Shown one piece after another: positions 33,475 to 51,713 of a DNA stretch of 64,000 bases. A program made the translations under genes and the position numbers. The DNA is from an uncultured virus (IMG/VR IMGVR_UViG_3300044612_002375) (Duplodnaviria > Heunggongvirae > Uroviricota > Caudoviricetes). Under the pieces are notes generated by a model. The model saw only the letters and a list, made by a program, of their open reading frames with translations. It was not told the DNA's origin and did not search any database. Every line of letters starts with the position of its first letter. Position 1 is the stretch's first letter. The stretch lies in the IMG/VR virus record IMGVR_UViG_3300044612_002375; one strand, written 5' to 3'.

Positions 33475-34041
33475 TTATAAGCTGTCTCTTTGTGTTATGC
33501 TATCAATTGAAATTGTATCGTAAACAAAGACTACGTTAAAAGTATTTAACACATTTGGACGAGCCATGCTAAAAGACATCTCATTTATTGTTCTGGGCCA
33601 CAATCCATTTAAACGGAAACGCTTTAAAACATTTTCATTCAATCCAAGATGTTCAATATACCAGTTAACTTTATAGTTTGGGGTAACTGAATATCTTGTT
33701 TTATTGTCAACATGATTGTTTATAAAATTATGCCACCGATGAAATCTTTTCCACAAATCTCCACTATCTGTGTCATCTACAATGGACACAGACCATGTGG
33801 AATACAGTTTTTCACCGGGATAATTTAATTTTCTACCAAAATAGTCATATGAAACTGTGCTTGTCTGTAGAGTAGGTATAAGAGTTGATCTAATATGAAA
33901 TGGAATTGCGGTTCCAGCATTATTCGAATTGCCTGCATTAGAAGCAGTAGCAGCCCCAGAAGGAAAACTTCCTGTCACCAAAAATCTATTTTGGCGAGTA
34001 CCACCTTTAAAGTTATCTTTAAATTCATTTAGTGATGCCAT
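33475..34041 (-). CDS. gp19: Tail tube protein paralog 2 (T4 gp19-like)
   Basis: GGTRQNRF, YFGRKLNYPGE, WSVSIVDD, LWP. Confidence 0.8.
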   Translation of the reverse strand: MASLNEFKDNFKGGTRQNRFLVTGSFPSGAATASNAGNSNNAGTAIPFHIRSTLIPTLQTSTVSYDYFGRKLNYPGEKLYSTWSVSIVDDTDSGDLWKRFHRWHNFINNHVDNKTRYSVTPNYKVNWYIEHLGLNENVLKRFRLNGLWPRTINEMSFSMARPNVLNTFNVVFVYDTISIDSITQRDSL

Positions 34042-34043
34042 GG

Positions 34044-34583
34044 TCAGATTCCAGTAAGTATGTCTATATAATCGAATGTTAATGTTACATCAAAGGTAAC
34101 AAATTCAGATGAGCCTAAGTCAAAATTAATTCCACCAACTTCACTTGGCCAACATCTATTTAATTTAATTTTTCTTAATACTTCACCATTTGGTCTCAAT
34201 TGTTCTATAAAAAAAGTAGTTTGTAAATTGGAATAAGAATAATTGTTACCTTCTACTTTATGTGTAAGATGGCCATCCAATTTTTCTTTCCAACTATTAA
34301 ATGCTTTCCATAAAGCACTGTCATTGTCATCATAAATTCTAACTGGCCATACTGAATATTGACGGTCTCCGGCAAAATACGCCATTCTTCCTCTGTATGG
34401 AACACCTATAACACCAACATCTGCTTTTGGTAATGATCCAGATGATATAAGAAATGAACTAGTAGAATTATTATTCCCAACATTTACTGTACTTGGAAAA
34501 GTAGGAATAATACGAAAACGGTTTGCTCTAGTACCGCCCTTAAACCCAGCTTTAAATTGGTTTAATGAGTTATATGATGCCAT
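34044..34583 (-). CDS. gp19: Tail tube protein paralog 1 (T4 gp19-like)
   Basis: GGTRANRF, VPYRGR..AGDR..W..RIYDD, CWPSEVG.I, FDVTLTFDY. Confidence 0.88.
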   Translation of the reverse strand: MASYNSLNQFKAGFKGGTRANRFRIIPTFPSTVNVGNNNSTSSFLISSGSLPKADVGVIGVPYRGRMAYFAGDRQYSVWPVRIYDDNDSALWKAFNSWKEKLDGHLTHKVEGNNYSYSNLQTTFFIEQLRPNGEVLRKIKLNRCWPSEVGGINFDLGSSEFVTFDVTLTFDYIDILTGI

Positions 34584-34584
34584 A

Positions 34585-35886
34585 TTATTGGTTTAGAGTT
34601 ATATTGAGTGTAAACGAGGTTGTTCCAATCAATGGAGTTACATTTACAAAGATTGTAAGTGTTGATACATTGTCATTGTTGTTGGTAGAATCGCAAATAA
34701 CTTGATTTTTTGTAGCATCCAAATACGTAGTATATTGTAACAAATAATTTGTTATTTCTCCAGTAACTAGATTTCTGGTTGTTGAATTATTCAACTCATA
34801 GAGATATTTAAGACCAATGTTTGTAATATCTCTCTTCATTTTGGCCTTCATTTGAGCTGGGCCAATTCTTTCATCAACTATTGGATTAGATGTTGAAGCA
34901 GTTGCTCCAACTAAATCAGCACCAAGGAATTTGGTTGTATAATTTAAGAAATAGTTTACACGAGCATTTTTAAGAAGATTTTTAAGATCAGTATCAGCAA
35001 AGTTTACTGTGGTTGTTACATCTCCATTTAAAATGAAGCCTCTAGCCGATCCTGCAATAGTTAAATAAAGTTCATTTCTAGCATTAACGCGTGTAAACAT
35101 ACCAGCAACATCAGCACTAAGATTATTAACATAAGTCAGTACACCGGAAGTATAAAGAGATGGAACTGGAAGATTTGTTACTGTTTTTTGACCATACACA
35201 GAAAATACACGATCAGCTACAGTTGCGCCTTCGACAAATGATGTTCCATTAAAAACAAAATTTGTTAAAGTTGTTCCCGCACCATCATCTAGACTGGGAA
35301 ATACACCAATAGTATATGGTGCTTCCCTTTCAAGCCATCTTTGGGCGCCAGAAAAACCTAAACCAGTTGCACCCATAATCAAATCAAAGTCTGTATTATA
35401 ATCAGTTTTCCAATCCAAAAAACCTTTTGTAGTTCCTGCAACAACAAGATTACCACCGTACGAAAGATAATCTAATGCATATAAAAATTCTCTTCCGGCA
35501 CCAGTAACTCCAAGATTACTGGTTTGATCACTATTAATTATACCATCATAGATAAAGAATCCAAAACTATTTCCTGTAGTTGTTGTAGGATTTATTAAAG
35601 CCCCAGTAACACCATTTAATTTGTTTAAATCATTAATCATTGCTGATGGCGAAGTGTAATACACATACGTTGATGCGGTAGTACCTATTGCTGGCGATGA
35701 CTTAATTGCTCTGGCATAAATTAGCCAACCAAATAAATTTCCGGGATTGTTTGATGCTCCAACAGAACTAAATGTTGGGGCTACATAAGTTAAACCTATC
35801 AAATAGCCGCAATCCATCTTAAATGCATCAGAGGCTGTTTCAGTTCGAAATTGATTAGTGCTAGTAAAAGAACTAAGAGTTGGCAT
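34585..35886 (-). CDS. gp18: Highly diverged, shortened tail sheath protein (T4 gp18-like)
   Basis: Between gp17 and gp19; remnants YLSYGGNL, AGSARG, YELNNSTTR, VICDSTNN. Confidence 0.7.
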   Translation of the reverse strand: MPTLSSFTSTNQFRTETASDAFKMDCGYLIGLTYVAPTFSSVGASNNPGNLFGWLIYARAIKSSPAIGTTASTYVYYTSPSAMINDLNKLNGVTGALINPTTTTGNSFGFFIYDGIINSDQTSNLGVTGAGREFLYALDYLSYGGNLVVAGTTKGFLDWKTDYNTDFDLIMGATGLGFSGAQRWLEREAPYTIGVFPSLDDGAGTTLTNFVFNGTSFVEGATVADRVFSVYGQKTVTNLPVPSLYTSGVLTYVNNLSADVAGMFTRVNARNELYLTIAGSARGFILNGDVTTTVNFADTDLKNLLKNARVNYFLNYTTKFLGADLVGATASTSNPIVDERIGPAQMKAKMKRDITNIGLKYLYELNNSTTRNLVTGEITNYLLQYTTYLDATKNQVICDSTNNNDNVSTLTIFVNVTPLIGTTSFTLNITLNQ

Positions 35887-35922
35887 GATTGTCCTTTTTT
35901 ATCACTAATATTTAGTAATTTT

Positions 35923-37572: not shown

Positions 37573-37993
37573 TCTTTATTGCCTCTATATCAATCACATT
37601 TTTTTCTGTACTTCTATCTTTATTTAACAGGTTCTGCAAATCCTTTGTTGAACCAACAAATACAGAATTATTTGTCTGCTTTATTTCAGTCTTACTATTT
37701 GTAGTTTCTTTAGCTTTTTTGTGCACATCCAATACATTGTTGTTTAAATCTGCCATTGTCTTTAAAAGAATAGCAACCACTTCAAACGCTCTGGGTGCAT
37801 CAGATTCAGTAGCAACTTTCAATGCAGCCTCCAAAGCAATATTTCCGCTACCAATCAAATCTTTTAGATTTGATTGTACAAGTGTATAATCTTTTTGAAA
37901 ATTATTTGCATCGTACGTACCACCCATAATTTCTTTTGATTTGGAATCTGGGTGTACTGGGACATTAAAAAATTTAGCTAATTGTTTATTCAT
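37553..37993 (-). CDS. gp16: Terminase small subunit (T4 gp16)
   Basis: DY....NL..LI, PRAFEV, NNSVFVGSTKDLQ. Confidence 0.9.
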   Translation of the reverse strand: MNKQLAKFFNVPVHPDSKSKEIMGGTYDANNFQKDYTLVQSNLKDLIGSGNIALEAALKVATESDAPRAFEVVAILLKTMADLNNNVLDVHKKAKETTNSKTEIKQTNNSVFVGSTKDLQNLLNKDRSTEKNVIDIEAIKNESQQE

Positions 37994-38667
37994 GAGTCAA
38001 ATCCAAATGCGATTCCAGCTGTTAGGCCAGAAACAGAAACTGAATTGATAACAGTTCCATTTTGCACTTTTCCAAATATATAACTTTTTGCTACAAAAGT
38101 AAATGAAGAAATATTAATACGGCGAGTAGAAAGATCGCCATCATACCTTTCACTGATGCTATTAGAAACCATTGTTATGGGTATATTGATACCCGGTTTT
38201 GCAGGATTTAAATCCATTGTTATCACGTGATGTGGATTAAAATATGGCATTATTTGTTCAACAATTTGCAGTGTATCATCAATATGTCTTGAATAAATAA
38301 ACAAAGTAAATCCTATATTGACTGGAATTTCTTCGGTTATAACCAGTGGATTTTCGGCACAATTTGCTGTTGACCGTGAAAGTGAAGGTGTATTTACATT
38401 GCGTCTTCGGCTTGGATCCGCTTGTATGTTCGTCATAACATAACTCATACGCGGAAGCTGGTTTTCAATTCTTAAACCATCATTAATTGATGATGGTTCT
38501 AAAAACCTTATTATAAATTTTTCTTGAGAAGCATAAGTAATGGGCACACGAATGTTAAGATCGTTACCACCATCAGGATTAACATGGTCAACAGATATAT
38601 TGTTGAATAGGGTACCAAATCCTATCACTATTTTTCTAAGACTTTGGTTGTAAAAATATCCAAACAT
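37990..38667 (-). CDS. gp15: Tail sheath stabiliser/terminator (T4 gp15)
   Basis: YFYNQSLRK...FGTLFNNI, VPITYA..EKF, LPRMS, QIVEQIMPYFNP. Confidence 0.92.
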   Translation of the reverse strand: MFGYFYNQSLRKIVIGFGTLFNNISVDHVNPDGGNDLNIRVPITYASQEKFIIRFLEPSSINDGLRIENQLPRMSYVMTNIQADPSRRRNVNTPSLSRSTANCAENPLVITEEIPVNIGFTLFIYSRHIDDTLQIVEQIMPYFNPHHVITMDLNPAKPGINIPITMVSNSISERYDGDLSTRRINISSFTFVAKSYIFGKVQNGTVINSVSVSGLTAGIAFGFDS

Positions 38668-38675
38668 TTATTACC

Positions 38676-39341
38676 TTAAGGACTTTCTTCTGTTGCAAAA
38701 GGATTCTGAGGATCAAACGTATATCCGTTGGCTTCTGTTTGTAGAATATCATTTACACCAGCAGTTGTACCGATATTTATATTGAGTGGTATGATTTGAG
38801 AACCAGATAGTCCACGAGTTTGAGAAATAATAGAATCAATTGTTTGATTATTTGTTTCAACCTTCTCATAACTATAGGTAAACAATTCTGCAGTTATCAT
38901 ATAAGAATAAAGCTTTCCAAATGGATACAATGGATTTTCATGTTCTACAAAGTTTATTTCAAATAAAGACTTTGAAAGAGGAAAATAAATTAAATCACCT
39001 TCTCTTGGTCTTGTTACAGACGGTTGATTTGCAATTACTTCTTGAGCAAATCTTTTTCTTGCAAAAAGTAATGTAACTTTATCTTTAATCTCAAGACCAA
39101 ATTGAGTTATTACATCAGTTCCATCAAATCCTTTATAATTCATCAAATACATTTCTAGTGTATAAGATTTTGTAAATGATGATCCAGGATCTTCACCAAA
39201 AATTCCATCTATTGAAAAATATTCTCTTGGAACATATATACAATCCTGTCCCATTGCCTGTATTACTTCTATAGTAATACTTTCGGTGAGATCTTGCTCA
39301 CCTTTATTACTATAATTTGATATGTATGGGTTTGTTGCCAT
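38676..39341 (-). CDS. gp14: Neck protein (T4 gp14)
   Basis: EQDL, YVPRE, FGLEIKD, RPREGDLIYFP, LFEINFVEHENP, NPF. Confidence 0.93.
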   Translation of the reverse strand: MATNPYISNYSNKGEQDLTESITIEVIQAMGQDCIYVPREYFSIDGIFGEDPGSSFTKSYTLEMYLMNYKGFDGTDVITQFGLEIKDKVTLLFARKRFAQEVIANQPSVTRPREGDLIYFPLSKSLFEINFVEHENPLYPFGKLYSYMITAELFTYSYEKVETNNQTIDSIISQTRGLSGSQIIPLNINIGTTAGVNDILQTEANGYTFDPQNPFATEESP

Positions 39342-39342
39342 T

Positions 39343-40170
39343 TTAACCTATTAGTGGATCTGGGGGCAGTTCTTGTGTTTTTACGAGCTGTTGTTCTATG
39401 ACATTGAGTTCGTTCATGGCTTCCGTCATCATTGCTGGTGCATTTAACTGTGCACCACCGGGCAAAGGAACTCCTGCAAACTTTAACAAATTTTGAGCCC
39501 ATTGTTTTTTCAATAGTGCAGTATAATATCTTTTGAAAACTCTATCATTCCAAACTTTATTATATTGACTGGTATCAATTTGAACATAGGCTTCCACCAT
39601 CAAAAATGCTCCTGCGGGAAGTTTACTATGTTCTGTATCCAAGAAAAGCCTATCGGTTGTTCTTGTGTATGTAAATGATGTGGGATAGTTAAATACATCG
39701 TTAACTAGTTTGATATAACTCATACCTTCCATGTATGCAGCCATTGGTCCTTGTGGGGCACCAGATTGATTAAAATACAATCCGAAGAAATCAAATAATG
39801 TCATTTGATACCGTAAATCAAACATATAATCACCAACAATATCGCTTGGTGCATATACTTTTGTAATGGTACGAATATCTGTTGCTATAGGCCAGTAACC
39901 AGTATTGCCATCTTCATCTGTTTTAATTTGTGCACCGAGAGCTGGTCCAAATTGAGTTGTGTCAAAATATCTATTAGCCCTATCTGCTTCTGTTATTCTA
40001 TATGCAAATAAAGCACGTTGATTAAAATCAAAGTGTCTTTCATACATATATTCCAGTGCTTCGTCAAGACGATCTTCAGCTTGAGTGGGGTCTATGTTTA
40101 CCTGAATAACAGGAGCACCAAGGGATCTATAGCAATAGTCTATAAAATTTTGACGGGTTGTAATGGCCAT
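39343..40170 (-). CDS. gp13: Neck protein (T4 gp13)
   Basis: LGAPVIQVNI..QAEDRLDEAL, KKQWAQNL.KF.GV.LPGG. Confidence 0.93.
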   Translation of the reverse strand: MAITTRQNFIDYCYRSLGAPVIQVNIDPTQAEDRLDEALEYMYERHFDFNQRALFAYRITEADRANRYFDTTQFGPALGAQIKTDEDGNTGYWPIATDIRTITKVYAPSDIVGDYMFDLRYQMTLFDFFGLYFNQSGAPQGPMAAYMEGMSYIKLVNDVFNYPTSFTYTRTTDRLFLDTEHSKLPAGAFLMVEAYVQIDTSQYNKVWNDRVFKRYYTALLKKQWAQNLLKFAGVPLPGGAQLNAPAMMTEAMNELNVIEQQLVKTQELPPDPLIG

Positions 40171-40178
40171 GAAAATAT

Positions 40179-40625
40179 TTATGTATTTTTCATAATGTTA
40201 TTCAGTTTTTCAAATAAACGCTGATTCTCTTCACTATTATTTACGGTTAATTGTATCAACTGAACGGATGCTGGATCCAAATTTTCAATAGAATGTTTTC
40301 TATTTCTATCTTCTTTATCATAGAAACTTGGATCATAATTACTAAATCCCGGCATTTTTAATGGGCAATCGATTTTAGGATAATCAAGTTTACAGTATTC
40401 GCCCGGATTTCTTATTAGCCATGTATGCTTATGATCCCCACAGCCACATTTTCCACAATAATAATGATTGGAATCTTTGCTTTTCTTTAAGAATTTACAA
40501 GGTGGTATAGTACCATTTCCATAGCAAGAAATGTATCTTAATTGTTTTGTAGGAAGATCAGTTTTATAGTTATTAAATCCACGCGATGCAATCGCCATGG
40601 CAAACGAAACAATCTTTTTTAACAT
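40179..40625 (-). CDS. Cys-rich hypothetical protein
   Basis: RYISCYG..PPC..YYCGKCGCGD..CKL..CPL; TAATG coupling. Confidence 0.6.
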   Translation of the reverse strand: MLKKIVSFAMAIASRGFNNYKTDLPTKQLRYISCYGNGTIPPCKFLKKSKDSNHYYCGKCGCGDHKHTWLIRNPGEYCKLDYPKIDCPLKMPGFSNYDPSFYDKEDRNRKHSIENLDPASVQLIQLTVNNSEENQRLFEKLNNIMKNT

Positions 40626-41248
40626 TATGGAGCCTCATATATAAGTACCATTCCAGCTGGTATAACACTTCTTTCTAAGAAAGCTTTATGGTTATCTGAA
40701 ACATTTGCAATAATTTTTATTACTGTATTGCTGAAACTTATTACCTGAGTTGTTTCATAGTCATATCCCATAAGGGTAGTCAATAAATAGTGAATTCCAT
40801 CAGGAGTTCCCTTTTTTCCGAAGTATTGATAATCTACTTGTATTGAAAATTTTGGAATATTTGAAAGAACATCTGACAATTCATCAGATGAGAAATCTTC
40901 TCCGGGGAAATATAATTCAGCCAATCCCTGTAGCAATTCAGTTGGCATAAATACTGGACTTCTCAATACTTCCCATGGAATATATGCACCATAGCCATAT
41001 TTCATGCTGTACAGCCAACGAAGATATTGTTTAACAATAGGAACAATTGTCACATTAGAAGTATTGCTTTGATATTCCTGAATTATCCACTCTGGAAACA
41101 ATGATTCAACTGTTAGATTATCACCAATAAATTTGTCTTTTCCAACATTATATAATTCTGAACCATATTGCTTTAATGCTTTTTCAAAAAGCAATTCAAC
41201 TTTTTGAGCAATACTTACGGGTAATCTGTTAAAGAACAGAGGAATCAT
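40625..41248 (-). CDS. Minimal baseplate wedge protein (gp7/tail protein I-like)
   Basis: Follows gp6; LFPEWI, QYLRWL, KKGT..GI.YLL, IPAGM motifs. Confidence 0.55.
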   Translation of the reverse strand: MIPLFFNRLPVSIAQKVELLFEKALKQYGSELYNVGKDKFIGDNLTVESLFPEWIIQEYQSNTSNVTIVPIVKQYLRWLYSMKYGYGAYIPWEVLRSPVFMPTELLQGLAELYFPGEDFSSDELSDVLSNIPKFSIQVDYQYFGKKGTPDGIHYLLTTLMGYDYETTQVISFSNTVIKIIANVSDNHKAFLERSVIPAGMVLIYEAP

Positions 41249-42318
41249 AGTCCGTATACCACCTGTATTCCAGCTATGACTTTGGCTTCTAGGTATTCCA
41301 TTAGAGCCGCTTGACTTCCAGTAGAAAGATCAGTTACATAAACATTAACAGATCCGGGAATGTCACCATTTCTTACATATACCATATCTGGATCAGATGT
41401 TCCAGAGATGCCAGAACCAACTATAGCATTAGTAAAATCTTTTAGAGTTACACATCGGTCATAGTTTAATTCAAAAAGTAGTTTTGCTTTGGCAGTATCG
41501 AGCGATATCGTATTATAACCACCACCGGGAGTGCCAATAAGATCAAAATCATTATTTGGGTCAGCTAATACAGCGTTATTTCCACTTGTTCCATTTGCAG
41601 TAACGGCACGAACTATAACGGACTTAGAAGTAGGGACGGTATTTGCATTTGCAAAATTATTAGTAACTAGATAACCATTAGCAGAATTTGTAACAGTAAA
41701 ATAATTGTTGTCTGTATTGGTAGTCATATTACCTTTACTAACTCGTGTCCATTTTACTTTTTCAGCTTTATTTAAAGAATCTGGAATAACATAAAAAGAA
41801 ATAGTATCGGGGTCAATGTTATATGGTAAAAGTATTGACTGACTTGTAAAGTCATAATTGCTAAATGTTTGCACATTTGATCCAGCATATAGATACATTT
41901 CCTGTGCACTTGTTAAACCCCCAGGTGTTCCATTTATAACAAAGAAATTTACATTACTTCCATCTGTCGCCGTAGCTGCATAAGATTGATAATCTTGAAC
42001 ATATGCACGAGTAGAAACCTTTACGGCTGCAGATTTTACAAGCGGAACAACAATTGAATGATTAGAGGCAATTGATATTACAGATTCTAATAATGTTGCT
42101 GTTGATAAAAATGATTCGGTAAATCCAAATTGTGAATATACACCATTATATGCTGTGGCAGTTGATAGAATATTAATTAAAAGATTGGCAGTGCTAGCTT
42201 GGTTTCTAAAATCAATGTCGGTCAAACCGGGCTGTATTTCTAAAAAAGAAATCAATGAATTTTTAATATCTTCAAAATCCAAAGAGGCTACATTTAAAGT
42301 TTTTAAATTATATGTCAT
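41245..42318 (-). CDS. gp6: Short baseplate wedge protein (T4 gp6-like)
   Basis: LDFEDIKNSLISFL, ESFLSTATLLESVISIA, RCVTLKDF. Confidence 0.85.
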   Translation of the reverse strand: MTYNLKTLNVASLDFEDIKNSLISFLEIQPGLTDIDFRNQASTANLLINILSTATAYNGVYSQFGFTESFLSTATLLESVISIASNHSIVVPLVKSAAVKVSTRAYVQDYQSYAATATDGSNVNFFVINGTPGGLTSAQEMYLYAGSNVQTFSNYDFTSQSILLPYNIDPDTISFYVIPDSLNKAEKVKWTRVSKGNMTTNTDNNYFTVTNSANGYLVTNNFANANTVPTSKSVIVRAVTANGTSGNNAVLADPNNDFDLIGTPGGGYNTISLDTAKAKLLFELNYDRCVTLKDFTNAIVGSGISGTSDPDMVYVRNGDIPGSVNVYVTDLSTGSQAALMEYLEAKVIAGIQVVYGL

Positions 42319-42698
42319 GATAATGGTATCTCTATCTGGCAGGATGATTTATTTTGACTAGTCAAAGATATTTCTGTAGAAAATTGAATATCAAAGATTA
42401 TTACTGTATCTGAATAATAATTCACAGTAACCGATACATCAAATATTTTTCTTATTGAGGATTTGATTACTGACCTCAAAGTACTTGTAATAATTTGTCT
42501 ATTAACGGCAACATCATAGGTATAATCTCTGATATTTGCTCCAAAACTCATGTTTGAAACATTTTCACCTTTATTTGTTCTCAGTACATTTTCAATTTGT
42601 TGAACTATAGAATTTGTACCACTTACAAATGCCAAATCTTTTTTGGAATTTGCAGTTGATACTTTTTCTAATAATATTGAAAAATCTTTGGTTTTCAT
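42315..42698 (-). CDS. gp25: Baseplate wedge protein (T4 gp25-like)
   Basis: SIVQQIENVLRTNKGE..FGANI; precedes gp6. Confidence 0.75.
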   Translation of the reverse strand: MKTKDFSILLEKVSTANSKKDLAFVSGTNSIVQQIENVLRTNKGENVSNMSFGANIRDYTYDVAVNRQIITSTLRSVIKSSIRKIFDVSVTVNYYSDTVIIFDIQFSTEISLTSQNKSSCQIEIPLS

Positions 42699-42715
42699 TC
42701 TAATTTATTTATACA

Positions 42716-43567
42716 TTATGACCAGATCTCCCCATTATTTGGGGTAAATGGATCATTAAAGTTACCAGGATTATTAGGTATATCCAGTTGTTCATTCCAT
42801 GGCGGTACTGTATTTTGATTATTCCCACCACTAGAATTTATTGGTGCAGAAGTTGATGGTAATATATCAGATAGAGTTAAAATGGTTTCATGTGTACCGG
42901 AATTAGTAAAAACATGTTTTACACCAAGCACCCAATAAATACCATTTATTACTGATCCACCTGAAAAATATGGATAACCACTTATATTGTTTGCTAAAAT
43001 TTCTACAAAGTTACCAACTTTTATTGAATAGTCACCAGCAATATTAATTGTTAGTTTTCTGGCATACTTTAAAGCATCCAAAAACTCTTTTCTTTTAACG
43101 GGAGTAGCTTTTGGAGTATTCCAAAAAGTAGCAACATTTAATCTAAGTTTTAAATATGCTTCAAACTTAGGTCCAAGATCAGGGCAACTACAGTTATATG
43201 GAGCTTCAGGTACTCCCCAAAGACAACCAAAAAAGTCTTTTCCTAATCTAGTATTATTACTTATTTCTTTGCATTCATTTGAAGCGGTGCCAAGGTATAT
43301 ATCTAATGGATATGTAAGACCTTCTGTACCATAAGTGACACCAGGAAATGACCACAATGAAGTAGAACTAGTAATACCTACAGCAGTAGCAATAGCTGAT
43401 ATACCAGGGAATTTAGAAAAACATTCTTCCAATGAGTTTGGAGTTGATGTAACACCTTGCACTATTTGAGCATTTGCACATACATATTCGCTCCTAGAAC
43501 CAAAATTTCCAATTGGTACATTTAAAACATTTGTTCCAAGAGTTACAGTTTTTCCACGTTTTGGCAT
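42716..43567 (-). CDS. Putative baseplate hub C-terminal portion (gp27/late control D-like)
   Basis: KLTINIAGD.SIKVG..V.I...INGIYWVLGVKHVF; N-terminal Cys-containing region. Confidence 0.5.
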   Translation of the reverse strand: MPKRGKTVTLGTNVLNVPIGNFGSRSEYVCANAQIVQGVTSTPNSLEECFSKFPGISAIATAVGITSSTSLWSFPGVTYGTEGLTYPLDIYLGTASNECKEISNNTRLGKDFFGCLWGVPEAPYNCSCPDLGPKFEAYLKLRLNVATFWNTPKATPVKRKEFLDALKYARKLTINIAGDYSIKVGNFVEILANNISGYPYFSGGSVINGIYWVLGVKHVFTNSGTHETILTLSDILPSTSAPINSSGGNNQNTVPPWNEQLDIPNNPGNFNDPFTPNNGEIWS

Positions 43568-45522
43568 TAGCAGCTCCCATCTACTACGTTTTCAGCACTA
43601 AAATAATACAACATTTTTCCTTTTAATTCGGGTGGTACAGCTATACCCCCTTCAACAGCAAGTCTTTCTGCGGTAGTTTTATACATCTTTACAATATGTG
43701 CAATCGTATCGCCAGCCGTATTTGGAATTGTAGTATAACATCCAATAGGTCGATATTTGAATCCCGAACCAAGACCAGTACTGACCCATCCAGGTGGATA
43801 ATATGCTGGAGTTCCTAAACCAGCAGTGCGTTCATTTAGATTGATTGCCCAAGAATCATTAGGACCTGTGCCAGTTGCCATATTTGTTGGATCAGATTCC
43901 CACAATTCCATTGCTGTCCAATAAGTACTACCAGCACCATTGGTAAATTTTAATCCTTCCCATTTGTAACGCCATTTAAGACCGTCCCCGCCAATCAATG
44001 GTATGGAAGTAAATGGATCTGGTGCATATCGAATCAAACTAGCAAAGAATGATTCTTCACCATCACCCATACAGCATAAAGAATACAATACAAAGTTTTC
44101 TCTTTCTATTTGTCGTCTTATTTCCAAATTTTCAGGAACATATGTATTTCCTTTATACAAGTTTGTCAAGTTTGTTTGAATTACATTATATAAAAAATTA
44201 TTTACTGGTGTTGGAGCATTAACTGGATTTGGATAATTTGGATGGATTTCAGTAGCATCAAATATATTTTTCCACATATCGATATTATCTGAATGTGAAA
44301 AATAACCACTATTTCCCATATAATTTATTTGAGAATAAGATTTTGCAAAACCAAATTCTCCAGATCCATATGTGGGTGGAGCATTATCATTTGTTGTGTT
44401 ATCATCTGAGATCCAACCCCAGTTCTTCTCACAAATCATTTCCTCGGCACCAGAAGTAACACCATTTATAGCACCACTAGATGCTATTACTTCAATATTA
44501 TATTTTTCTCCATCATCTTGAAAATGATATGTCAGAGCTTTTGTTGTATAATCTTGTTTTTGTTGATTGGTAGTAAGATATAATGGCACACTATCTAAAA
44601 ATTTTGGTGTTTTTCTAACATAGAAATAGTTTTTAGATACCCATTGATTTGTTGGATCTGTTCTTAAATTATAGATTTTTTTATAGACATTACCATTGGT
44701 CGATGTTTGTGATGGAACGTCTGAATCATAAACACTGTATCTATAATTCTTATTTGTATATTTGGTAAATGTTTGAGTGTCATCATTTTTCTTTTCATAG
44801 AAATATTTAAAATTAATATAGTCACCAAAATCCGACCAAAACAAATATCTTGGTTCTCGTGTTCCGTTTGATGTTTCTGGCCCTACAGCCAAACTAGAAA
44901 TATAATTTAAATATTGAAAAGCACTATCTGTGGAGACATATGTTAGATTATTATTATTTCCCGGACTTAACATTTTTAAACAAAAAAAGTTACTAGGATT
45001 TACCGTAATTTCACCTCTAAATGTAGTAGTAGCACTACCATATCCCAATTTGTTAAAAGCATTTTGATCAAAATAATTTAAAATATTATTTAAAGAATCA
45101 ACTCTATCTTCAAGTTTTCCATTGGATGTTAATAAATCCGATGCTGAAGTTTTTTGAGATAATTTATAAAAACTATTTGTAACATTTATAGATACAAAGT
45201 TTTCTTCTGTTTCAGATGCAGCATTATTTACATAGGTTGTACTAGTAATAGAAAGTCTTATCATCGTACCATCAGTCATATACATTAAGGCATAATCAAT
45301 TTTATTGTTTTGAATAAACGTGGTTATATCTTGTGTATCGCGCACAACTATAGCGCCAACAGGAAATATTTCAAAGACACTTTCTTCTAATTCCAAACGT
45401 TGAAACTGGCACTGACTATTTCTGTTTAAAATATTAAATGCATATTGTGAATCTGTAGAACTTGTAAGTACGATTGCACTTAATGGTGAGTCAAATGGAT
45501 TTGATTGTAAATTTGGAGGCAT
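43567..45522 (-). CDS. Putative baseplate hub N-terminal portion (gp27-like) with large insertions
   Basis: LEESVFE.FP.G.IVVRD and YLFWSDF..INFK motifs; after gp53. Confidence 0.5.
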   Translation of the reverse strand: MPPNLQSNPFDSPLSAIVLTSSTDSQYAFNILNRNSQCQFQRLELEESVFEIFPVGAIVVRDTQDITTFIQNNKIDYALMYMTDGTMIRLSITSTTYVNNAASETEENFVSINVTNSFYKLSQKTSASDLLTSNGKLEDRVDSLNNILNYFDQNAFNKLGYGSATTTFRGEITVNPSNFFCLKMLSPGNNNNLTYVSTDSAFQYLNYISSLAVGPETSNGTREPRYLFWSDFGDYINFKYFYEKKNDDTQTFTKYTNKNYRYSVYDSDVPSQTSTNGNVYKKIYNLRTDPTNQWVSKNYFYVRKTPKFLDSVPLYLTTNQQKQDYTTKALTYHFQDDGEKYNIEVIASSGAINGVTSGAEEMICEKNWGWISDDNTTNDNAPPTYGSGEFGFAKSYSQINYMGNSGYFSHSDNIDMWKNIFDATEIHPNYPNPVNAPTPVNNFLYNVIQTNLTNLYKGNTYVPENLEIRRQIERENFVLYSLCCMGDGEESFFASLIRYAPDPFTSIPLIGGDGLKWRYKWEGLKFTNGAGSTYWTAMELWESDPTNMATGTGPNDSWAINLNERTAGLGTPAYYPPGWVSTGLGSGFKYRPIGCYTTIPNTAGDTIAHIVKMYKTTAERLAVEGGIAVPPELKGKMLYYFSAENVVDGSC

Positions 45523-45523
45523 A

Positions 45524-46342
45524 TCATGTATATTTAATCGTAATTAAACGACTCGTCACTTTAGACAATTCACTTGGATTAAATATATTCACCTTTCTAT
45601 TTGCATACTGTGCTACTTCTTGGGTTGTTTGTTCTGCGGTTTTAGAGCTCGCAGGACTATAAACATTTGGAACATCTCCTAACAACATGTTTTTAAATAA
45701 CAGTGATCCAACAGGTCCATAATCTTCAATTAATTCTACTGTATCTATATAAGAGTACTTTTCAATTACGTTAATTGGTGTTTCTGTAGAATTTATAAAT
45801 GTTGATGGTGCTTCAAAATCAACATATTGTGCCTCAATACCTCCACTTGCAAAAGGAACCCCATTGCTTGGTGTTGGTTTCATTGTTACTCTTTTTGTAT
45901 ATGAATCTTGATTTTCTACAATGTAGATATCTCCATCTAAAGAAAAATTACCAACATAATTAAAATCAAATGGATTGCCTCCAGTTGCCGAATATGGTAA
46001 TACTAAACTACCAGCACTTATATAATAACCAGTATTTCCTGTCGAGTTTGCAATTTTTGCTGTTTCTTTGTATTTGTTATTTTGAATAAAATCAGTATAG
46101 TTATCAATAAACAAGAAAAATGGATTTATTGTTTGATTAGCTAGAAGAATCAACCAAAAAGAATTGGGATCTTCATATAGAGTTGAAGCAGCCTCTACCA
46201 ATGTGGTTTTGCTATCAAATTCAAATTGTCTTTTGCTAACTAAATCAAAGCTAAACTTATAGTAACTAAAATAATCACTAATAGAAAAAGATCCAAGTGT
46301 AGTTTCAAAAGTTCGTTTTGGAAGTTTATCAAAGTATTTCAT
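45524..46342 (-). CDS. gp53: Baseplate wedge protein (T4 gp53)
   Basis: MKYFDKLP, LYEDP..FWLILLAN..INP, NRKVNIF.P. Confidence 0.8.
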   Translation of the reverse strand: MKYFDKLPKRTFETTLGSFSISDYFSYYKFSFDLVSKRQFEFDSKTTLVEAASTLYEDPNSFWLILLANQTINPFFLFIDNYTDFIQNNKYKETAKIANSTGNTGYYISAGSLVLPYSATGGNPFDFNYVGNFSLDGDIYIVENQDSYTKRVTMKPTPSNGVPFASGGIEAQYVDFEAPSTFINSTETPINVIEKYSYIDTVELIEDYGPVGSLLFKNMLLGDVPNVYSPASSKTAEQTTQEVAQYANRKVNIFNPSELSKVTSRLITIKYT

Positions 46343-47148
46343 TATCCAGAGTATCCAAAATAATAATCTGAAATTTCAGATTTAGACCAAGTAGCATTTG
46401 CATCTGGAACATATGTACCAGTTTCAAATTCAACAAAATTGAGACCAAGCATAACAGCGGATGAACGATAGTCTTTGAGATACCGCAATACTGGATCACC
46501 GTAGTCAGCATGTTTAACTACAATACCACTCAAAACACAAGGAAGAGGTTCGCCAAACCAATCCGCAGTTCTATTTGGATTTATATCTCCACCATTCATT
46601 ACGGAAATATTCCATAGTCTTTGTGGATAAGATCTTTCGGGCAAGCCTGTAGCAACTACTGGATAAGATCCTTTTCTAAAAGTTCCAACTATATCAGTAA
46701 CAACATTTGACTCATCTGGTGATTTTGGAACAAACAAATATTCAAAGTAATAACTTTTTCTAGCCTCTGAAACCATGGTAAGTTCGGTAATATTACTAAA
46801 TCTTCTATAAGTATCAGTTGCATATTGCCTTTCAGCAAAGAATGCTACTGGCTGCATTACTCTTGAATACAAAGTTCCAAAGTTATCTAAGCCACCGCTA
46901 TTGGCTGCACCTGCCATAGAAATTACTGGTCCAACAGGATTTTGACCTTCACCAAATTGGTGAATGATACTATAACCCGGTTCTTTTGGCATAGGAAGTA
47001 TTATGGTAGAATCGGATCTAGTTACGATAGAATCTCTGGTTCTTTCAAAATTCTTCAAAGAATAGGTTGCAACATCAAATCTTAGTTGCAAAGGAACTTC
47101 AGCACCAGAAGCGCTACCTGCAATTGGGTATATATATGTTGATGCCAT
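46342..47148 (-). CDS. gp48: Baseplate tail-tube cap (T4 gp48-like); start re-called at 47148
   Basis: IILPMP, RKSYYFEYLFVPKSPDES..I..F, CVLSGI.V, LNFVE; late promoter 7 nt before ATG. Confidence 0.75.
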   Translation of the reverse strand: MASTYIYPIAGSASGAEVPLQLRFDVATYSLKNFERTRDSIVTRSDSTIILPMPKEPGYSIIHQFGEGQNPVGPVISMAGAANSGGLDNFGTLYSRVMQPVAFFAERQYATDTYRRFSNITELTMVSEARKSYYFEYLFVPKSPDESNVVTDIVGTFRKGSYPVVATGLPERSYPQRLWNISVMNGGDINPNRTADWFGEPLPCVLSGIVVKHADYGDPVLRYLKDYRSSAVMLGLNFVEFETGTYVPDANATWSKSEISDYYFGYSG

Positions 47149-47155
47149 ACTACAA

Positions 47156-47176
47156 TATTTAGCAATATCATAAATA
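47156..47176. promoter_or_regulatory. Back-to-back late promoters (CTAAATA on -, ATAAATA on +)
   Basis: 47156-47162 and 47170-47176, 7 and 6 nt from the ATGs of gp48 and gp4. Confidence 0.7.
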
Positions 47177-47182
47177 TTTAAA

Positions 47183-47614
47183 ATGGCGTACAGAACACAG
47201 TTTTTTCCAAAAAACAAAGAGAAATACATAGGCGATTGTGAAAAGATCGTCTGCAGATCTCTGTGGGAAAGAACTGTTTGCAAATTTTGCGACGATCACC
47301 CAAATATAATAAAATGGTCATCTGAAGAAATTGCAATTCCTTATGTGCATCCAATAGAGAAAAAGATTAAAAACTATTATCCAGATTTTTTAATAGAGAT
47401 AAAGCAAAACAATAATAAAAAAATTTGGATGGTAGAAGTTAAACCCAAAAAACAAACCTTCTTAAAGGAAAATGCCACCAAAAAAGAAAAATATATATGG
47501 GCAGTAAATACTGCAAAGTGGAAGGCAGCGGAAAATTATTGTGAAAAACACAATATAGAATTTAAAATTTTAACAGAAAAAGAGTTATATAACAAATGTC
47601 ATCCTCACCCATAA
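47183..47614 (+). CDS. gp4: Head completion nuclease (T4 gp4; TnsA-like fold)
   Basis: PKNKEKYIGD..I.CRSLWE, WSSEE..IPY, YYPDF, EVKP..QT, N.AKW.AA. Confidence 0.92.
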   Translation: MAYRTQFFPKNKEKYIGDCEKIVCRSLWERTVCKFCDDHPNIIKWSSEEIAIPYVHPIEKKIKNYYPDFLIEIKQNNNKKIWMVEVKPKKQTFLKENATKKEKYIWAVNTAKWKAAENYCEKHNIEFKILTEKELYNKCHPHP

Positions 47615-48192
47615 ACACCAATAATATTGACAATCTAAAAAATTATTTGAATGCCAGTGGCGGTCTTCAAAGAGCCAATAGATATGCTGTAAAAATTTAT
47701 AGACCCGAATTAGATGACCTTCCTAGTGGTCAAGTATCGTCATCATATATAACTGTTTATCCATCTGAAATTTCTTTTGGTGCACGTGCGACGAATTACA
47801 TATATGATGGACTACAAGGTTACAATTATGGTAGAGCTGTTCCCAATTCTACAAAATTTGTTGGTGGAATTGTAATGACTTTTTATGTTACTGGCGATCT
47901 ATTTGTTTTAAATTATTTCAATGACTGGTTTGATGCCATGTACAATAGAAATAATAATACTTTTTTTGTTCCTTGGTATACTGAAACTGTACAACCTGCA
48001 AACCTTCAACTTACATATTTGGATTTAAATGGAAACCAGTCGGTTTCAACAAATAACCAATCTCTATGGACATTTCAAGAAGTATATCCAGTAGAGGCAC
48101 TGCCTATTCAATTGTCTGCCAAAGCAGATTCTCCCTTACTTTATCAAGTTGTATTGAATTACAGATCTATTACTAGATCTTCTATACGATAA
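47596..48192 (+). CDS. Baseplate tail-tube initiator (gp54/gp19-like)
   Basis: GGLQRANRY, F..WFD, EVYP....IQL tube-fold motifs; position after gp4. Confidence 0.7.
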   Translation: MSSSPINTNNIDNLKNYLNASGGLQRANRYAVKIYRPELDDLPSGQVSSSYITVYPSEISFGARATNYIYDGLQGYNYGRAVPNSTKFVGGIVMTFYVTGDLFVLNYFNDWFDAMYNRNNNTFFVPWYTETVQPANLQLTYLDLNGNQSVSTNNQSLWTFQEVYPVEALPIQLSAKADSPLLYQVVLNYRSITRSSIR

Positions 48193-48208
48193 ATTTTTTG
48201 GAATTATT

Positions 48209-48865
48209 ATGGATATTTTAAATTTATTTAAAGACTCGCAACCAAAGTTTGAAACCACACTTCCTTTTAGTAAAAAGAAAGTTTTATTTACTGCATTTAA
48301 AGTAAAAGATGCTAAAAAAATATCTTTGATACTTAATGAAGATAATAAAAAATTATCATTATTGGCGTTATATGAATGCATAAAAGACAACTGTGATTTA
48401 AAAAATGTACAAGATCTGTGTCTTGCTGATGCAGAATACTTATTTCTACAAATTAGATCTAAAAGTGTTGATGAATTGATTAACGTGATTGTGAATCAAG
48501 AAAAAACTCAAATTGGTATATCTAATATTGAAAATAAAAATGCAATTCAATCATTGAATATACCAGTAGGTGAGTCCATTACAATTACTCTAGCAACTCC
48601 TTCTTTAAGTGATTTACTAAAACAAGATTCATTTTCGGATGAAATTTATTCTAAATCATGCATCAAGAGTATAATAATTTCTGGTCAAGTTTTTTACTTA
48701 GATAAATTTGTAAATGAAAAGTGCAAGGAGCTCATCGATAATCTCCCTTTGTTTACTATGAAACAAATTAATGAATTTGTAAAAAACGAACCAAGATTAT
48801 GGTTCAAGGTCGAAAAAGAAAATAGTGAAAGTGAGGTATCTGGTTTCCTAAGTTTTTTTATCTAG
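48209..48865 (+). CDS. gp26: Baseplate hub assembly/chaperone protein (T4 gp26-like)
   Basis: PKFETTLP, FTAFKVK, DAEYLFLQIRSKSVDE, C-terminal GFLSFF. Confidence 0.85.
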   Translation: MDILNLFKDSQPKFETTLPFSKKKVLFTAFKVKDAKKISLILNEDNKKLSLLALYECIKDNCDLKNVQDLCLADAEYLFLQIRSKSVDELINVIVNQEKTQIGISNIENKNAIQSLNIPVGESITITLATPSLSDLLKQDSFSDEIYSKSCIKSIIISGQVFYLDKFVNEKCKELIDNLPLFTMKQINEFVKNEPRLWFKVEKENSESEVSGFLSFFI

Positions 48866-49062
48866 CAGCAAGTTACTTTGATGTTGTTGACTACTATCAA
48901 ACTAACTTCTCTTTAATGAAAGAACTAAAATGGAGTGTACAAGATATCGAAAATATGTATTTTTGGGAGAGAGAAGTGTATATTAACATTCTGGTAAATT
49001 ACAATTTAGAACAAGAACAGAAACAATTACATAATCAAACAGCAGGACAACACTTTGGATAA
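48853..49062 (+). CDS. gp51: gp51-like baseplate hub assembly domain (probably reached by -1 frameshift from gp26; first ATG at 48916; missing from ORF track)
   Basis: -1 frame reads YLAASYFDVVDYYQTNFSLMKELKWSVQDIENMYFWEREVYINIL..., matching the gp51 pattern YY.TNF.LM....S..IENM..WER..Y. Confidence 0.8.
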   Translation, partial: FFYLAASYFDVVDYYQTNFSLMKELKWSVQDIENMYFWEREVYINILVNYNLEQEQKQLHNQTAGQHFG

Positions 49063-49504
49063 TAATAATGAAGCAAAAATAAACATTGAAGCAGAAAAAA
49101 CTGTATTCAGTGATGCCATAGGAAGATCTGAACAAAAACTAGAAATGACAGAATCATCATATTCAGTTACTCCTTCTCCTTTTAGTACTCAAAATCTGTC
49201 CATGATATCTATGGATACCAGTGTAAATGTTTCTCCAGTTATTGCTGCACCAAATCAATCCAGAATAATTCCAATGCAGGCTAATACCGGTTTCATGGAT
49301 AATTCTAAAACTTCAAATATTGAAAAACAAATTAAAGATAATATCATGCCATCTCTTCAGAAGATTGCACAGCAAGTAAATGACATGAATGTATCTACTA
49401 AGAATCAAAATACTGATTTGGTAGAAAGACCTACAATCGCTCCAACAAATCTAATATTTTTAGATAGAGCAACTAAAACATCATCAGCCCCAAATTGGGC
49501 ATAA
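49055..49504 (+). CDS. Hypothetical protein in the tape-measure slot
   Basis: 149-aa Ser/Asn/Thr-rich ORF (TTG start) directly after gp51, followed by terminator. Confidence 0.55.
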   Translation: MDNNNEAKINIEAEKTVFSDAIGRSEQKLEMTESSYSVTPSPFSTQNLSMISMDTSVNVSPVIAAPNQSRIIPMQANTGFMDNSKTSNIEKQIKDNIMPSLQKIAQQVNDMNVSTKNQNTDLVERPTIAPTNLIFLDRATKTSSAPNWA

Positions 49505-49529
49505 AAAAAGCCCCCTTGCGGGGGCTTTT
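49503..49529. terminator. Bidirectional rho-independent terminator
   Basis: AAAAGCCCCC-TTGC-GGGGGCTTTT between convergent genes. Confidence 0.9.
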
Positions 49530-49530
49530 C

Positions 49531-50764: not shown

Positions 50765-51712
50765 ATGCCATCAGGAACAGGCGTAACATCAGATGCGATT
50801 CCAATTCAAACAGCAGGTATAACCGCATATATTGCGACCGATTATGTCGGTACAGGCGGTATTACAGGTCACTACCAACTCATTAAACTTGGGTATGGTG
50901 TCGATGGATCTGCGACAGTTGTAAATTCAGCAAATCCACTTCCAGTAACAATTGCCACTGGAATGACTGCCACTATTTCTGGATTCACAGGAACCATTGA
51001 TGTACGTGGTATAGGTGGTGCTGCAGTGGTGGTGTCTGGTTCAGTAGTCACAACTGGTCTAACTTCATCTCCATTATTTGTTAGAACTTTTACAGGATCA
51101 CAAGTAGAAGTCACTGGCGGTCGTTATCTAGGAAAATCTAACGATTCGGTTTCTGTATGGGGTCCAAATGGTCTCACATACATTTATGTAAATTTAGTAG
51201 ACCAAGCTGGAAATTCTTTAAGTTACACCAATGGTGCACTAAACGTTAACGTTGCTGGTGCAACAATCAATGCCACCATTCCTTCTACCGTTACTGTAGT
51301 AGGTCTTTCCGGTGCTACTGCTGTAGGAGTTAACGTAGGTAACACTGTTGGAATTAATGATACAAATATTCTAACTGGTATGACTGCCATCTATGGTCAG
51401 GTCGTAGGTCTAAGAAGTGATCTTGGTGGATTTGCTGTAATTCGTCCAACTGGTGGAACTGCTTATAGACTAACAAGCACAACAACTGCAGCAGCATTTG
51501 CTGGATTTACTTGTAAGAGTGGAATAAATGTAAAAGCTGCATCTGCGAATACCGATGTAATCTACATAACTACTGATACAACTGCCTCTCTTACTTCTCT
51601 TGGATACGAATTAGATCCCGGAGAATCGTTATTCATAGATATAATAAATTCTAGTCTTTTGGCCCACAGAGCAAAATCAGGTTCTCAAATTATTAGTTAC
51701 CTAGCGACCTAA
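50765..51712 (+). CDS. Putative virion structural protein (Gly/Thr-rich)
   Basis: CTAAATA late promoter and GAGG SD upstream; NPLPV repeat; C-terminal KAASANT..IY...GYELDPGES domain. Confidence 0.65.
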   Translation: MPSGTGVTSDAIPIQTAGITAYIATDYVGTGGITGHYQLIKLGYGVDGSATVVNSANPLPVTIATGMTATISGFTGTIDVRGIGGAAVVVSGSVVTTGLTSSPLFVRTFTGSQVEVTGGRYLGKSNDSVSVWGPNGLTYIYVNLVDQAGNSLSYTNGALNVNVAGATINATIPSTVTVVGLSGATAVGVNVGNTVGINDTNILTGMTAIYGQVVGLRSDLGGFAVIRPTGGTAYRLTSTTTAAAFAGFTCKSGINVKAASANTDVIYITTDTTASLTSLGYELDPGESLFIDIINSSLLAHRAKSGSQIISYLAT

Positions 51713-51713
51713 T

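Follow-up and report, generated by a model that had tools for sequence, protein, structure and literature searches.

Bacteriophage T4 carries the textbook complex contractile tail, and P2, Mu, the pyocins and the Photorhabdus virulence cassette (PVC) carry the textbook simple ones; the baseplate of Mu, judged by its gene order, is simple in the same way as that of P2. The T4 tail has 23 sheath rings and uses gp29 as its tape measure. Its sheath protein gp18 combines a conserved core (domains III and IV) with solvent-exposed domains I and II (residues 88-345), and the C-terminal half of its wedge protein gp6 forms the dimer between wedges, as described in an account of T4 structure (PMC3004832). 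Here we describe the tail and baseplate genes at positions 33,475 to 49,504 of a 64,000-nucleotide stretch of DNA, referred to below as the window, from an uncultured virus of the Caudoviricetes (IMG/VR record IMGVR_UViG_3300044612_002375). An initial annotation had proposed that this region encodes a T4-like head on a drastically reduced tail, a short and possibly non-contractile stub that implies some other route of entry.

Most probably, these are the tail and inner-baseplate genes of an uncultured but abundant aquatic lineage of T4-like myophages whose tail subunits have been cut to their conserved cores. The resulting set is stripped down and apparently complete as a contractile tail. Among 50,697 phage records, the best match to the portal protein comes from Pelagibacter phage Mosig EXVC030M (Kyanoviridae), at 48.6% identity, followed by those of cyanomyophages at ~48%; at the DNA level, the 16-kb region matches none of the phage records. 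Window open reading frames (ORFs) of at least 100 amino acids (aa), plus 10 small non-overlapping ORFs, were scanned against Pfam and PHROG, and expect values (E) are given in parentheses.

The sheath gene had been placed and sized correctly at 433 aa but was taken to be degenerate.

34585..35886, minus strand: tail sheath of core-only type, 433 aa (structure model, Foldseek, VIA-align, family profile)

A search of 5.8 billion proteins returned 146 clusters of sheath relatives at E <= 0.001, and the 120 listed are 279-441 aa long, nearly all of them 425-441 aa, with identities down to 39%. Structure prediction, the check that had been proposed for this protein, yielded a near-complete contractile sheath fold. 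The AlphaFold2 (AF2) monomer model, built from 36 relatives, has a predicted local distance difference test score (pLDDT) of 89.6 and a predicted template modeling score (pTM) of 0.89. When the model was compared with the PDB by Foldseek, T4 gp18 was the top match (8.5e-12), followed by the sheaths of the antifeeding prophage (AFP), PVC and pyocins. VIA-align gave Z scores of 25.1 for the 351-aa PVC sheath (306 residues aligned), 25.0 for the AFP sheath, 24.4 for the 655-residue sheath of the T4-like Klebsiella phage KP1 (315 residues aligned, model residues 1..422 on chain residues 13..634) and 22.9 for the pyocin R2 sheath. All 50 VIA-align entries listed are sheaths (Z 25.1 to 15.7, model range 1..422), and they include both extended and contracted states of solved sheaths. 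Every named protein among the 50 best matches in the viral library is likewise a sheath or tail protein.

Sheaths of 350-385 aa with solved structures match the model nearly end to end. Where arms linking adjacent subunits would lie, the monomer model matches extended-state sheaths from its first residue on, and the final strand (residues 425-432) aligns in some entries. With T4-type sheaths of 609-655 residues, ~300-315 residues align, spread over chain residues 13..634 and 21..646. The superfamily core fold made from N- and C-terminal parts of the chain is therefore present in the model, and the exposed insertion domains I and II of the T4 type are not. Simple arithmetic agrees with this picture, since removing the 258 residues of domains I and II from the 659 of gp18 leaves ~400, close to the 433 found here. 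In sequence, the family profile matches T4 gp18 at residues 464-642 (3.8e-12) and the protein itself matches phrog_23, tail sheath (3.1e-7); no Pfam family was matched at E <= 1. As modeled, then, the sheath is not degenerate but keeps the core fold common to contractile sheaths.

Sheaths of this kind have precedents. The smallest phage sheath reported has 341 aa, and extra sheath domains are not essential for assembly or contraction, according to a comparative study that also finds mostly sheaths of three or more domains in genomes above 100 kb (PMC9230969). Given that trend and the inessential nature reported for the extra domains, the core-type sheath of a phage this large is unusual rather than a sign of decay. 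At 433 aa the protein is longer than the P2 sheath (396 aa).

Three proteins of recognizable T4 type, and an ORF in the position of a fourth, are assigned to the wedge of the baseplate.

42315..42698, minus strand: gp25, 127 aa (Pfam GPW_gp25 5.8e-7, above the cut-off)
45524..46342, minus strand: gp53-like wedge subunit, 272 aa (Pfam Phage_gp53 4.7e-5, above the cut-off; phrog_232 2.9e-5)
41245..42318, minus strand: gp6 wedge subunit, N-terminal half only, 357 aa (Pfam Gp6-like_1st 2.8e-8)
40625..41248, minus strand: 207-aa ORF, candidate third wedge subunit (position of gp7 and P2 gpI)

The gp25 protein also has a weak match to Pfam Sheath_initiator (0.0032, below the cut-off). The gp6 protein, whose size and position were as first reported, scores 33.9 bits against Gp6-like_1st, for which the cut-off is 27, and matches phrog_219 over profile positions 4-261 of 598 (1e-20). 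Its family profile aligns with T4 gp6 only over residues 26-347 (1.7e-14), and the alignment ends at family position 298 of 358. With a match that stops at T4 residue 347 and a protein of just 357 aa, the C-terminal half of gp6 is absent. An hhalign comparison of the family with P2 gpJ gave no significant match.

The 207-aa ORF had been described as gp7-like. Its size and coordinates are correct and it lies directly after the gp6-type gene, as in the 6-7 order of T4 and the J-I order of P2, but the likeness does not extend to any significant Pfam, PHROG, PDB-profile or hhalign match. An invariant KGT in the family lines up with 'HKGT' of P2 gpI (E 0.24, not significant), and a search for longer relatives of the family found none. 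From its position, we infer that this protein is the third wedge subunit.

Between gp53 and gp25 lie two adjoining ORFs.

43567..45522, minus strand: 651-aa ORF, putative N-terminal hub part plus ~220 further residues (hhalign chain to Mosig_00129)
42716..43567, minus strand: 283-aa ORF, putative C-terminal hub part with a cysteine (Cys)-rich N-terminal half (HMMER relatives, end of phrog_350)

On its own, the 651-aa ORF matches nothing in Pfam, PHROG or the PDB, and just one of the 37 sequences in its family alignment (A2) matches phrog_350 (0.0011). A HMMER search with the 283-aa ORF found 100 relatives. Its residues ~95-237 match the C-termini of giant proteins of 1.3-2.1 thousand aa (kaa) and of proteins of ~350 aa, and in these relatives the matched region corresponds to the final ~90 positions of phrog_350 ('tail protein'). 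At the other end, the N-termini of the giant proteins correspond to the first ~330 positions of the same PHROG. This N-terminal part (alignment A6) is linked by hhalign to residues 8-428 of the 651-aa family (probability 98.9%, E 2e-17) and to Mosig_00129 (97.4%, E 1.2e-11), a full-length phrog_350 member (3.4e-79) that sits between gp53 and gp5 in the hub position. By way of phrog_350 and these profile links, the two ORFs correspond, in the right order, to opposite ends of the Kyanoviridae hub-position protein, and they probably constitute a split baseplate hub. Division of the hub between two polypeptides holds in 24-25 related loci.

Other comparisons bearing on the hub were less informative. 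A language-model search gave a lead from the 651-aa ORF to Gp44-like/Phage_GPD clusters (0.92). PDB profile searches were empty for the 651-aa, 207-aa and 283-aa families and for A6, and hhalign found no significant match between the 651-aa family and T4 gp27, T4 gp29 or Mosig_00133, or between the 283-aa family and P2 gpD or gpV. The 283-aa ORF was considered as gp5 because of a 15-residue stretch shared with Mosig gp5 (9/15 identical, pairwise E 0.001), and was rejected because the wider family points to a hub C-terminus. Separately, the 1.3-2.1-kaa phage proteins of A6 (P0253-P0331) have their two phrog_350 ends separated by >1000 residues, and from this arrangement they may be hubs with a giant insert.

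The remaining virion genes follow the T4 pattern. On the minus strand the order is gp48-like, gp53-like, 651-aa ORF, 283-aa ORF, gp25, gp6, 207-aa ORF, 148-aa Cys-rich ORF, gp13, gp14, gp15, gp16, gp17, sheath, gp19, a second tube paralogue, gp20, gp21, gp22, gp23 and a gp3-like gene; alongside them on the plus strand are gp4, a tube-fold ORF in the gp54 position, gp26 and a 149-aa ORF. The description of the head, portal, terminase and neck genes as well conserved stands for the head, portal and neck, which score strongly against T4-like Pfam families (gp23 7.5e-133, portal 2.4e-167, gp15 1.1e-53, gp14 4.2e-42), and fits less well for the large terminase, whose score is weaker (1.8e-21).

26631..27158, minus strand: gp3-like tail-tube terminator, 175 aa (phrog_45 tail tube 2.3e-25)
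33475..34041, minus strand: second tail-tube paralogue, 188 aa (phrog_45 1.1e-27)
34044..34583, minus strand: gp19 tail tube, 179 aa (phrog_45 1.4e-32; BLASTP to T4 gp19 1e-14)
37990..38667, minus strand: gp15 sheath stabilizer/terminator, 225 aa (Pfam T4-gp15_tss 1.1e-53)
38676..40170, minus strand: neck proteins gp14 (221 aa) and gp13 (275 aa) (Pfam T4_neck-protein 4.2e-42)
40179..40625, minus strand: conserved Cys-rich protein, 148 aa, between wedge and neck genes (six invariant Cys)
46342..47283, minus strand: gp48-like tail tube cap, 313 aa as listed (phrog_230 baseplate tail tube cap 1.3e-8)
47183..47614, plus strand: gp4 head completion protein, 143 aa (phrog_218 2.1e-48)
47596..48192, plus strand: tube-fold protein in the gp54 position, 198 aa (phrog_45 6.2e-10)
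48209..48865, plus strand: gp26-type baseplate hub protein, 218 aa (Pfam T4_baseplate 1e-23; phrog_150 9.1e-26)

The gp3-like protein is 34% identical to T4 gp3 over 71 aa (BLASTP, 2e-10), and its gene adjoins the major capsid gene, the place that a 'tail tube protein' occupies in Mosig. The gp19 protein also matches Pfam Phage_T4_gp19 (5e-6, below the cut-off), as does, weakly, the protein in the gp54 position (0.022); Mosig has a 'tail tube initiator' before gp26. The neck proteins are further matched by phrog_679 (1.5e-59) and phrog_211 (5.7e-31). The gp48-like protein probably starts further in than listed, because its homologue in a related record (G007) has 274 aa and the listed TTG start overlaps the gp4 gene. 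In the 148-aa Cys-rich protein, which has no Pfam or PHROG match, C34, C43, C57, C60, C62 and C87 are invariant in 20 sequences and include a C-x2-C-x-C motif.

Two observations on these genes stand apart from the argument. The adjoining tube paralogues (33475-34583) are 36% identical (2e-34), Mosig has one tube gene at this place, and each paralogue has a homologue in 76 of the 82 related loci with a sheath match described below. The gp4 protein (47183-47614) matches the Pfam TnsA-like endonuclease N-terminal domain (2.4e-21).

Relatives of the sheath are encoded in at least 473 IMG/VR stretches; 80 loci were kept, and 82 loci with a sheath match were analyzed. They contain 77 complete sheaths, all of 426-441 aa, and this constancy across deep divergence argues that the sheath is in use. 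For each of the other ORFs, a locus was eligible if enough upstream DNA had been fetched to reach it.

Cys-rich ORF: found in 37 of 39 eligible loci, 132-169 aa
207-aa ORF: found in 34 of 37 eligible loci, 203-222 aa
gp6: found in 28 of 31 eligible loci, 356-365 aa
gp25: found in 27 of 30 eligible loci, 125-144 aa
283-aa ORF: found in 25 of 30 eligible loci, 234-287 aa
651-aa ORF: found in 24 of 28 eligible loci, 638-678 aa

The lengths of the compact set are nearly constant from ~100% down to ~30-45% identity, and recurrence of the same ORFs at the same lengths in dozens of independent contigs is more than chance. Neither hub ORF was found in loci L010 and L013. The wedge genes and the sheath of L013 are separated by additional DNA that shifts the hub out of the fetched range, and the miss in L010 looks to have the same cause.

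The initial annotation also reported that no gp5 spike, PAAR protein or gp8 could be recognized, and this holds for all window ORFs scanned and for the contigs of relatives. The Gp5_OB, PAAR and gp8 families have no hit on any window ORF, small ORFs included, and Gp5_OB and PAAR have none in the related records G002-G006 at E <= 0.1. In the same kind of search, Gp5_OB was found in T4 (1.8e-68) and in Mosig (1.1e-29). Mosig gp8 and gp5 have no match in G002-G006. When the canonical Mosig sheath served as query, the short sheath gene was the sole match in G002 and G007, and G006 gave none. A full-length gp5, gp8 or tape measure, or a second canonical sheath, had been named as findings that would overturn the stub proposal if encoded elsewhere in the genome, and none turned up across ~131 kb. 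An ORF at 63521 was considered as gp5 or tape measure and set aside; it has a weak lysozyme hit, and its counterpart in a relative is 277 aa long.

The order gp54, gp26, gp51, 90-aa, 42-aa and 655-aa ORF in Mosig corresponds to gp54-like, gp26, 48-aa and 149-aa ORF in the window, and to describe the tape-measure slot as holding 149 aa was a fair synteny reading.

49055..49504, plus strand: small conserved ORF in the slot of the 655-aa ORF of Mosig, 149 aa (position after gp26)

Only residues 16-149 are conserved in relatives, where they are 97-98% identical in G002 and G006. The ORF has no family hit and no similarity to the 655-aa Mosig protein, Mosig_00133, which itself lacks a PHROG hit and which we infer to be the tape measure. 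No relative of Mosig_00133 was found in G002 and G006, the two records searched, and phrog_1283, the T4 gp29 type, has no hit in the window ORFs or in the relatives searched. Such silence is normal for marine T4-like phages, to judge from a pelagimyophage study which states that a tape measure could not be identified (PMC7029224). Likewise, a tape measure goes unmentioned in the description of a cyanomyophage whose tail measures 418 nm (0 occurrences in a term search of the text; PMC10665884). More fundamentally, tail length is set by the number of stacked rings rather than by the size of the subunits, so small subunits give no support to a short or non-contractile tail.

Several larger ORFs beyond the window are weak tape-measure candidates, those of 450-554 aa being poorly conserved. 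One of 450 aa resembles neither Mosig_00133 nor T4 gp29, and its relatives share the first 27 residues only. ORFs of 554 aa and 510 aa in relatives are polar and of low complexity, and a 774-aa ORF in relatives matches only phrog_4590, a family of unknown function, at its C-terminus, which appears HNH-like by eye. The 450-aa ORF belongs to a curious group (L027:4408-5760, L028:13959-15347 and L105:3816-5252, of 450, 462 and 478 aa) located 2-8 kb past the right end of the window. Its members have a conserved 27-residue N-terminus followed by near-complete divergence, even between close relatives. Our guess is that they join a conserved targeting leader to variable cargo, as would fit packaged internal proteins.

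How these results are to be read depends on what is made of the missing parts. The stub proposal, in which the tail has shrunk to a short and possibly non-contractile remnant and the phage enters by another route, draws on the failure to recognize a tape measure, gp5, PAAR or gp8 in ~131 kb of window and relatives' contigs, and on a slot ORF of just 134-149 aa where Mosig has 655 aa. We consider it very unlikely. The sheath core aligns with extended and contracted sheaths alike and has held its length across deep divergence, gp25 and homologues of the T4 sheath stabilizer, tube terminator and tube cap are all present, subunit size does not determine tail length, and tape measures generally escape recognition in marine T4-like phages, as the pelagimyophage study reports (PMC7029224). 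What survives of the earlier description is that the tail and baseplate are drastically reduced, in that the sheath and wedge subunits are much smaller than those of T4 or Mosig; the sheath is not degenerate. That the short genes are decayed remnants, or artefacts of assembly or gene calling, is scarcely credible: the weak family scores of the sheath (phrog_23 alone, without a Pfam family) might suggest it, but the frames are intact, the same lengths recur in dozens of independent contigs at identities from ~100% to 30-45%, and the sheath model is confident.

Two further alternatives retain contraction. Tape measures scale at ~1.5 Å per residue, and the 590 aa and 925-Å sheath of T4 give 1.57. 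The tail could thus be contractile and truly short, with the ~134 conserved residues of the slot ORF acting as a ruler for a tail of ~20 nm and about five sheath rings. The correspondence of the slot with the 655-aa ORF of Mosig, the 97-98% conservation of the slot ORF in close relatives, and the lack of a longer, well-conserved helical ORF (those of 450, 462 and 478 aa share only their first 27 residues) favor such a ruler. We nevertheless find it unlikely, since the slot ORF has no similarity to Mosig_00133, itself a presumed tape measure, and polar or helical ORFs of 450-554 aa in relatives could serve as rulers instead. To our knowledge, a contractile phage tail of ~20 nm on a head of T4 size would be unusually short. 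It is similarly improbable that the tail contracts without any gp5-type spike or conventional tape measure, having as its tip either the 148-aa protein or a Cys-rich hub insert (the N-terminal half of the 283-aa protein together with the C-terminal 220 residues of the 651-aa protein), with the slot ORF again setting ~20 nm. We therefore prefer the view that the region encodes a compact contractile tail, against which several observations must be counted. No spike, PAAR or tape measure was recognized in ~131 kb of window and relatives, which leaves room for a truly unusual tip or ruler. The hhalign scores of the 207-aa family are not significant for T4 gp7 (E 0.23), P2 gpI (0.24) or Mosig_00105 (0.37). 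The hub is tied weakly to known structures (0.061 to T4 gp27, 0.083 to a C-terminal motif of P2 gpD), and its YQBQ-like Pfam hits, at the end of the model, are all below threshold (0.038 for the 283-aa ORF, 5.7e-4 for P0260, 0.027 for P0271). Wedge genes were not found upstream of gp13 in loci L071, L079 and L081, and the two of these that were inspected have other, opposite-strand genes there. Moreover, the structure model covers the sheath only, statements on the genome beyond the window rest on relatives' contigs, and the lineage is known here from its sequence.

If the compact tail is functional as we propose, its wedge would consist of gp25, gp53, the N-terminal half of gp6 and the 207-aa protein in the gp7/gpI position, and its hub would be of the type found at the gp27 position of Kyanoviridae, divided between the adjoining 651-aa and 283-aa genes. 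The tube, its paralogue, gp48, the gp54-like protein, gp26, gp3 and gp15 would complete the set. A small inner baseplate in the size class of P2, Mu and the pyocins would nucleate tube and sheath, and by analogy with P2, Mu, R-type pyocins and PVC/AFP the tail would contract and drive the tube through the envelope. The missing outer baseplate (the C-terminal part of gp7, and gp8 to gp12) may have been replaced by lineage-specific host-binding proteins, for which the candidates are an 1819-aa RCC1 protein, collagen-like fibers and ORFs of 315 and 436 aa.

2594..4288, minus strand: collagen-repeat tail fiber, 564 aa (Pfam Collagen 7.9e-26; phrog_5073 tail fiber 3.8e-37)
50765..53024, plus strand: two conserved beta-rich ORFs (315 and 436 aa), candidate outer tail or fiber parts (conservation)
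53809..59268, minus strand: 1819-aa RCC1-repeat protein, candidate receptor-binding protein (Pfam RCC1_2 4e-8)

The 315-aa and 436-aa ORFs have no family hit and are 90-96% identical in G002 and G006 and 41-47% identical in G007. The RCC1 protein and its 163-aa neighbor (53290-53781) are only ~66-67% identical to their counterparts where neighboring genes are 90-100% identical, and the RCC1 counterpart in G007 has 2278 aa and 28% identity. Hypervariability at this site is as expected for host recognition. Relatives carry collagen-like ORFs nearby that range from 890 to >2335 aa, the longest being in G002. Neither this longest ORF nor the RCC1 protein is similar to Mosig VrlC, and both were rejected as its equivalent.

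The extent of the genome can be judged from related records. G006 (82 kb) overlaps the window at 48854-64000, with most genes at 90-100% protein identity, and extends 66.8 kb past its right end to reach DNA polymerase and fiber genes. G007 (83 kb) runs from DNA polymerase through collagen-like fiber genes to genes of the left end of the window. Joining the window with G006 and G007 gives a genome circle of ~131-135 kb, which agrees with the 134-136 kb of the family's longest contigs; CheckV figures imply a genome of ~180 kb.

Additional features of these records are noted here for completeness. Kinship between G007 and the window is mosaic, with gp44, gp46, gp47, UvsW and gp32 at 95-99% identity, capsid and portal at 72-75%, and tail and baseplate proteins at only 33-55%; at the level of sequence, the pattern suggests that lineages have swapped entire modules. 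Sugar-nucleotide and glycan genes form a run at window positions 12793-23899 that includes two types of GDP-mannose dehydratase/epimerase, a DegT-type aminotransferase, a methyltransferase, a hexapeptide transferase, PhyH, and GT2, GT10, GT11 and GT25-like transferases. Between ~14 kb and 24 kb, G+C makes up 28-31% of the sequence, compared with 34-43% elsewhere in the window. Positions 45974-50123 of G006 (L026) have long open frames on both strands, with a translation rich in Leu, Val, Gly, His and Arg that is unlike the rest of the phage, and this segment could be a G+C-rich insert, or else the contig could be chimeric at this point. A search of the window for tRNA genes gave none. Tripeptide tags in 24 virion proteins are not clearly enriched ([ST][GA]S, 27 observed versus 17.8 expected; DS[DE], 4 versus 3.3; LS[AGS], 13 versus 12.4).

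Full-text literature searches found no published description of such a lineage, one that combines T4-type head, neck, tube and replication genes with a sheath and wedge as small as those of simple tails yet T4-like in sequence. This natural 'minimal T4 tail' could help to show which T4 parts are dispensable, and whether the T4 baseplate grew from such a core or this lineage was cut down. Its compact sheath runs against the trend toward three or more sheath domains in genomes above 100 kb, as reported in the comparative study (PMC9230969). Because the lineage is abundant in viral contigs, with at least 473 stretches, its host-recognition and entry parts matter for the ecology of aquatic phages.

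Comparison with known systems places this tail between the textbook types. Homologues of T4 gp3, gp4, gp6 (N-terminal half), gp13, gp14, gp15, the gp18 core, gp19, gp25, gp26, gp48 and gp53 are present, as is a gp54-like protein, and the late-gene order gp13-gp14-gp15-gp16-gp17-gp18-gp19-gp20 is the same. The T4 sizes quoted in the initial annotation for gp18, gp6, gp7 and gp29 agree with the T4 record, in which gp29 has 590 aa. The sheath differs from that of T4 in its length (433 versus 659 aa) and in lacking the domain I/II region, gp6 has 357 rather than 660 aa, and the place of the 1032-aa gp7 is taken by a 207-aa ORF in which no similarity was found. Also, gp5, gp5.4, gp8 to gp12, gp27 (phrog_1135) and gp29 (phrog_1283) were not recognized here. 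With Mosig and other Kyanoviridae the window shares the order of head, neck and tail genes, the phrog_350 type of hub and the gp3-like gene after the capsid gene. In Mosig, however, the sheath has 639 aa, gp6 619 aa, the ORF after gp6 874 aa, gp8 486 aa, VrlC 2045 aa, gp5 with its OB domain 361 aa, the unsplit hub 483 aa and the ORF after gp26/gp51 655 aa, and none of these full-size proteins has a counterpart of like size in the lineage of the window. Since the nearest cultured relative is full-size, the shortening is real and specific to this lineage.

The likeness to P2 is one of size and order. The sheath (433 versus 396 aa), the gp6-type protein (357 versus 302 aa for gpJ), the next ORF (207 versus 176 aa for gpI) and the gp25-type protein (127 versus 115 aa for gpW) are all comparable, and the order gp25, gp6, next ORF is that of W-J-I. 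There is no significant sequence similarity to gpI, gpJ, gpD or gpV, no P2-type tape measure or spike was recognized, the wedge is of T4 type by sequence (gp6, gp53), and the head, neck and replication genes are T4-like. PVC, AFP and the R-type pyocins provide the best structural matches to the sheath (Z 25.1, 25.0 and 22.9, with ~306-311 residues aligned), although their sequence identity is 12-14%, the window sheath is 50-80 aa longer, and its sequence kinship is with T4 gp18. The tail is T4-type by descent and a simple tail by size.

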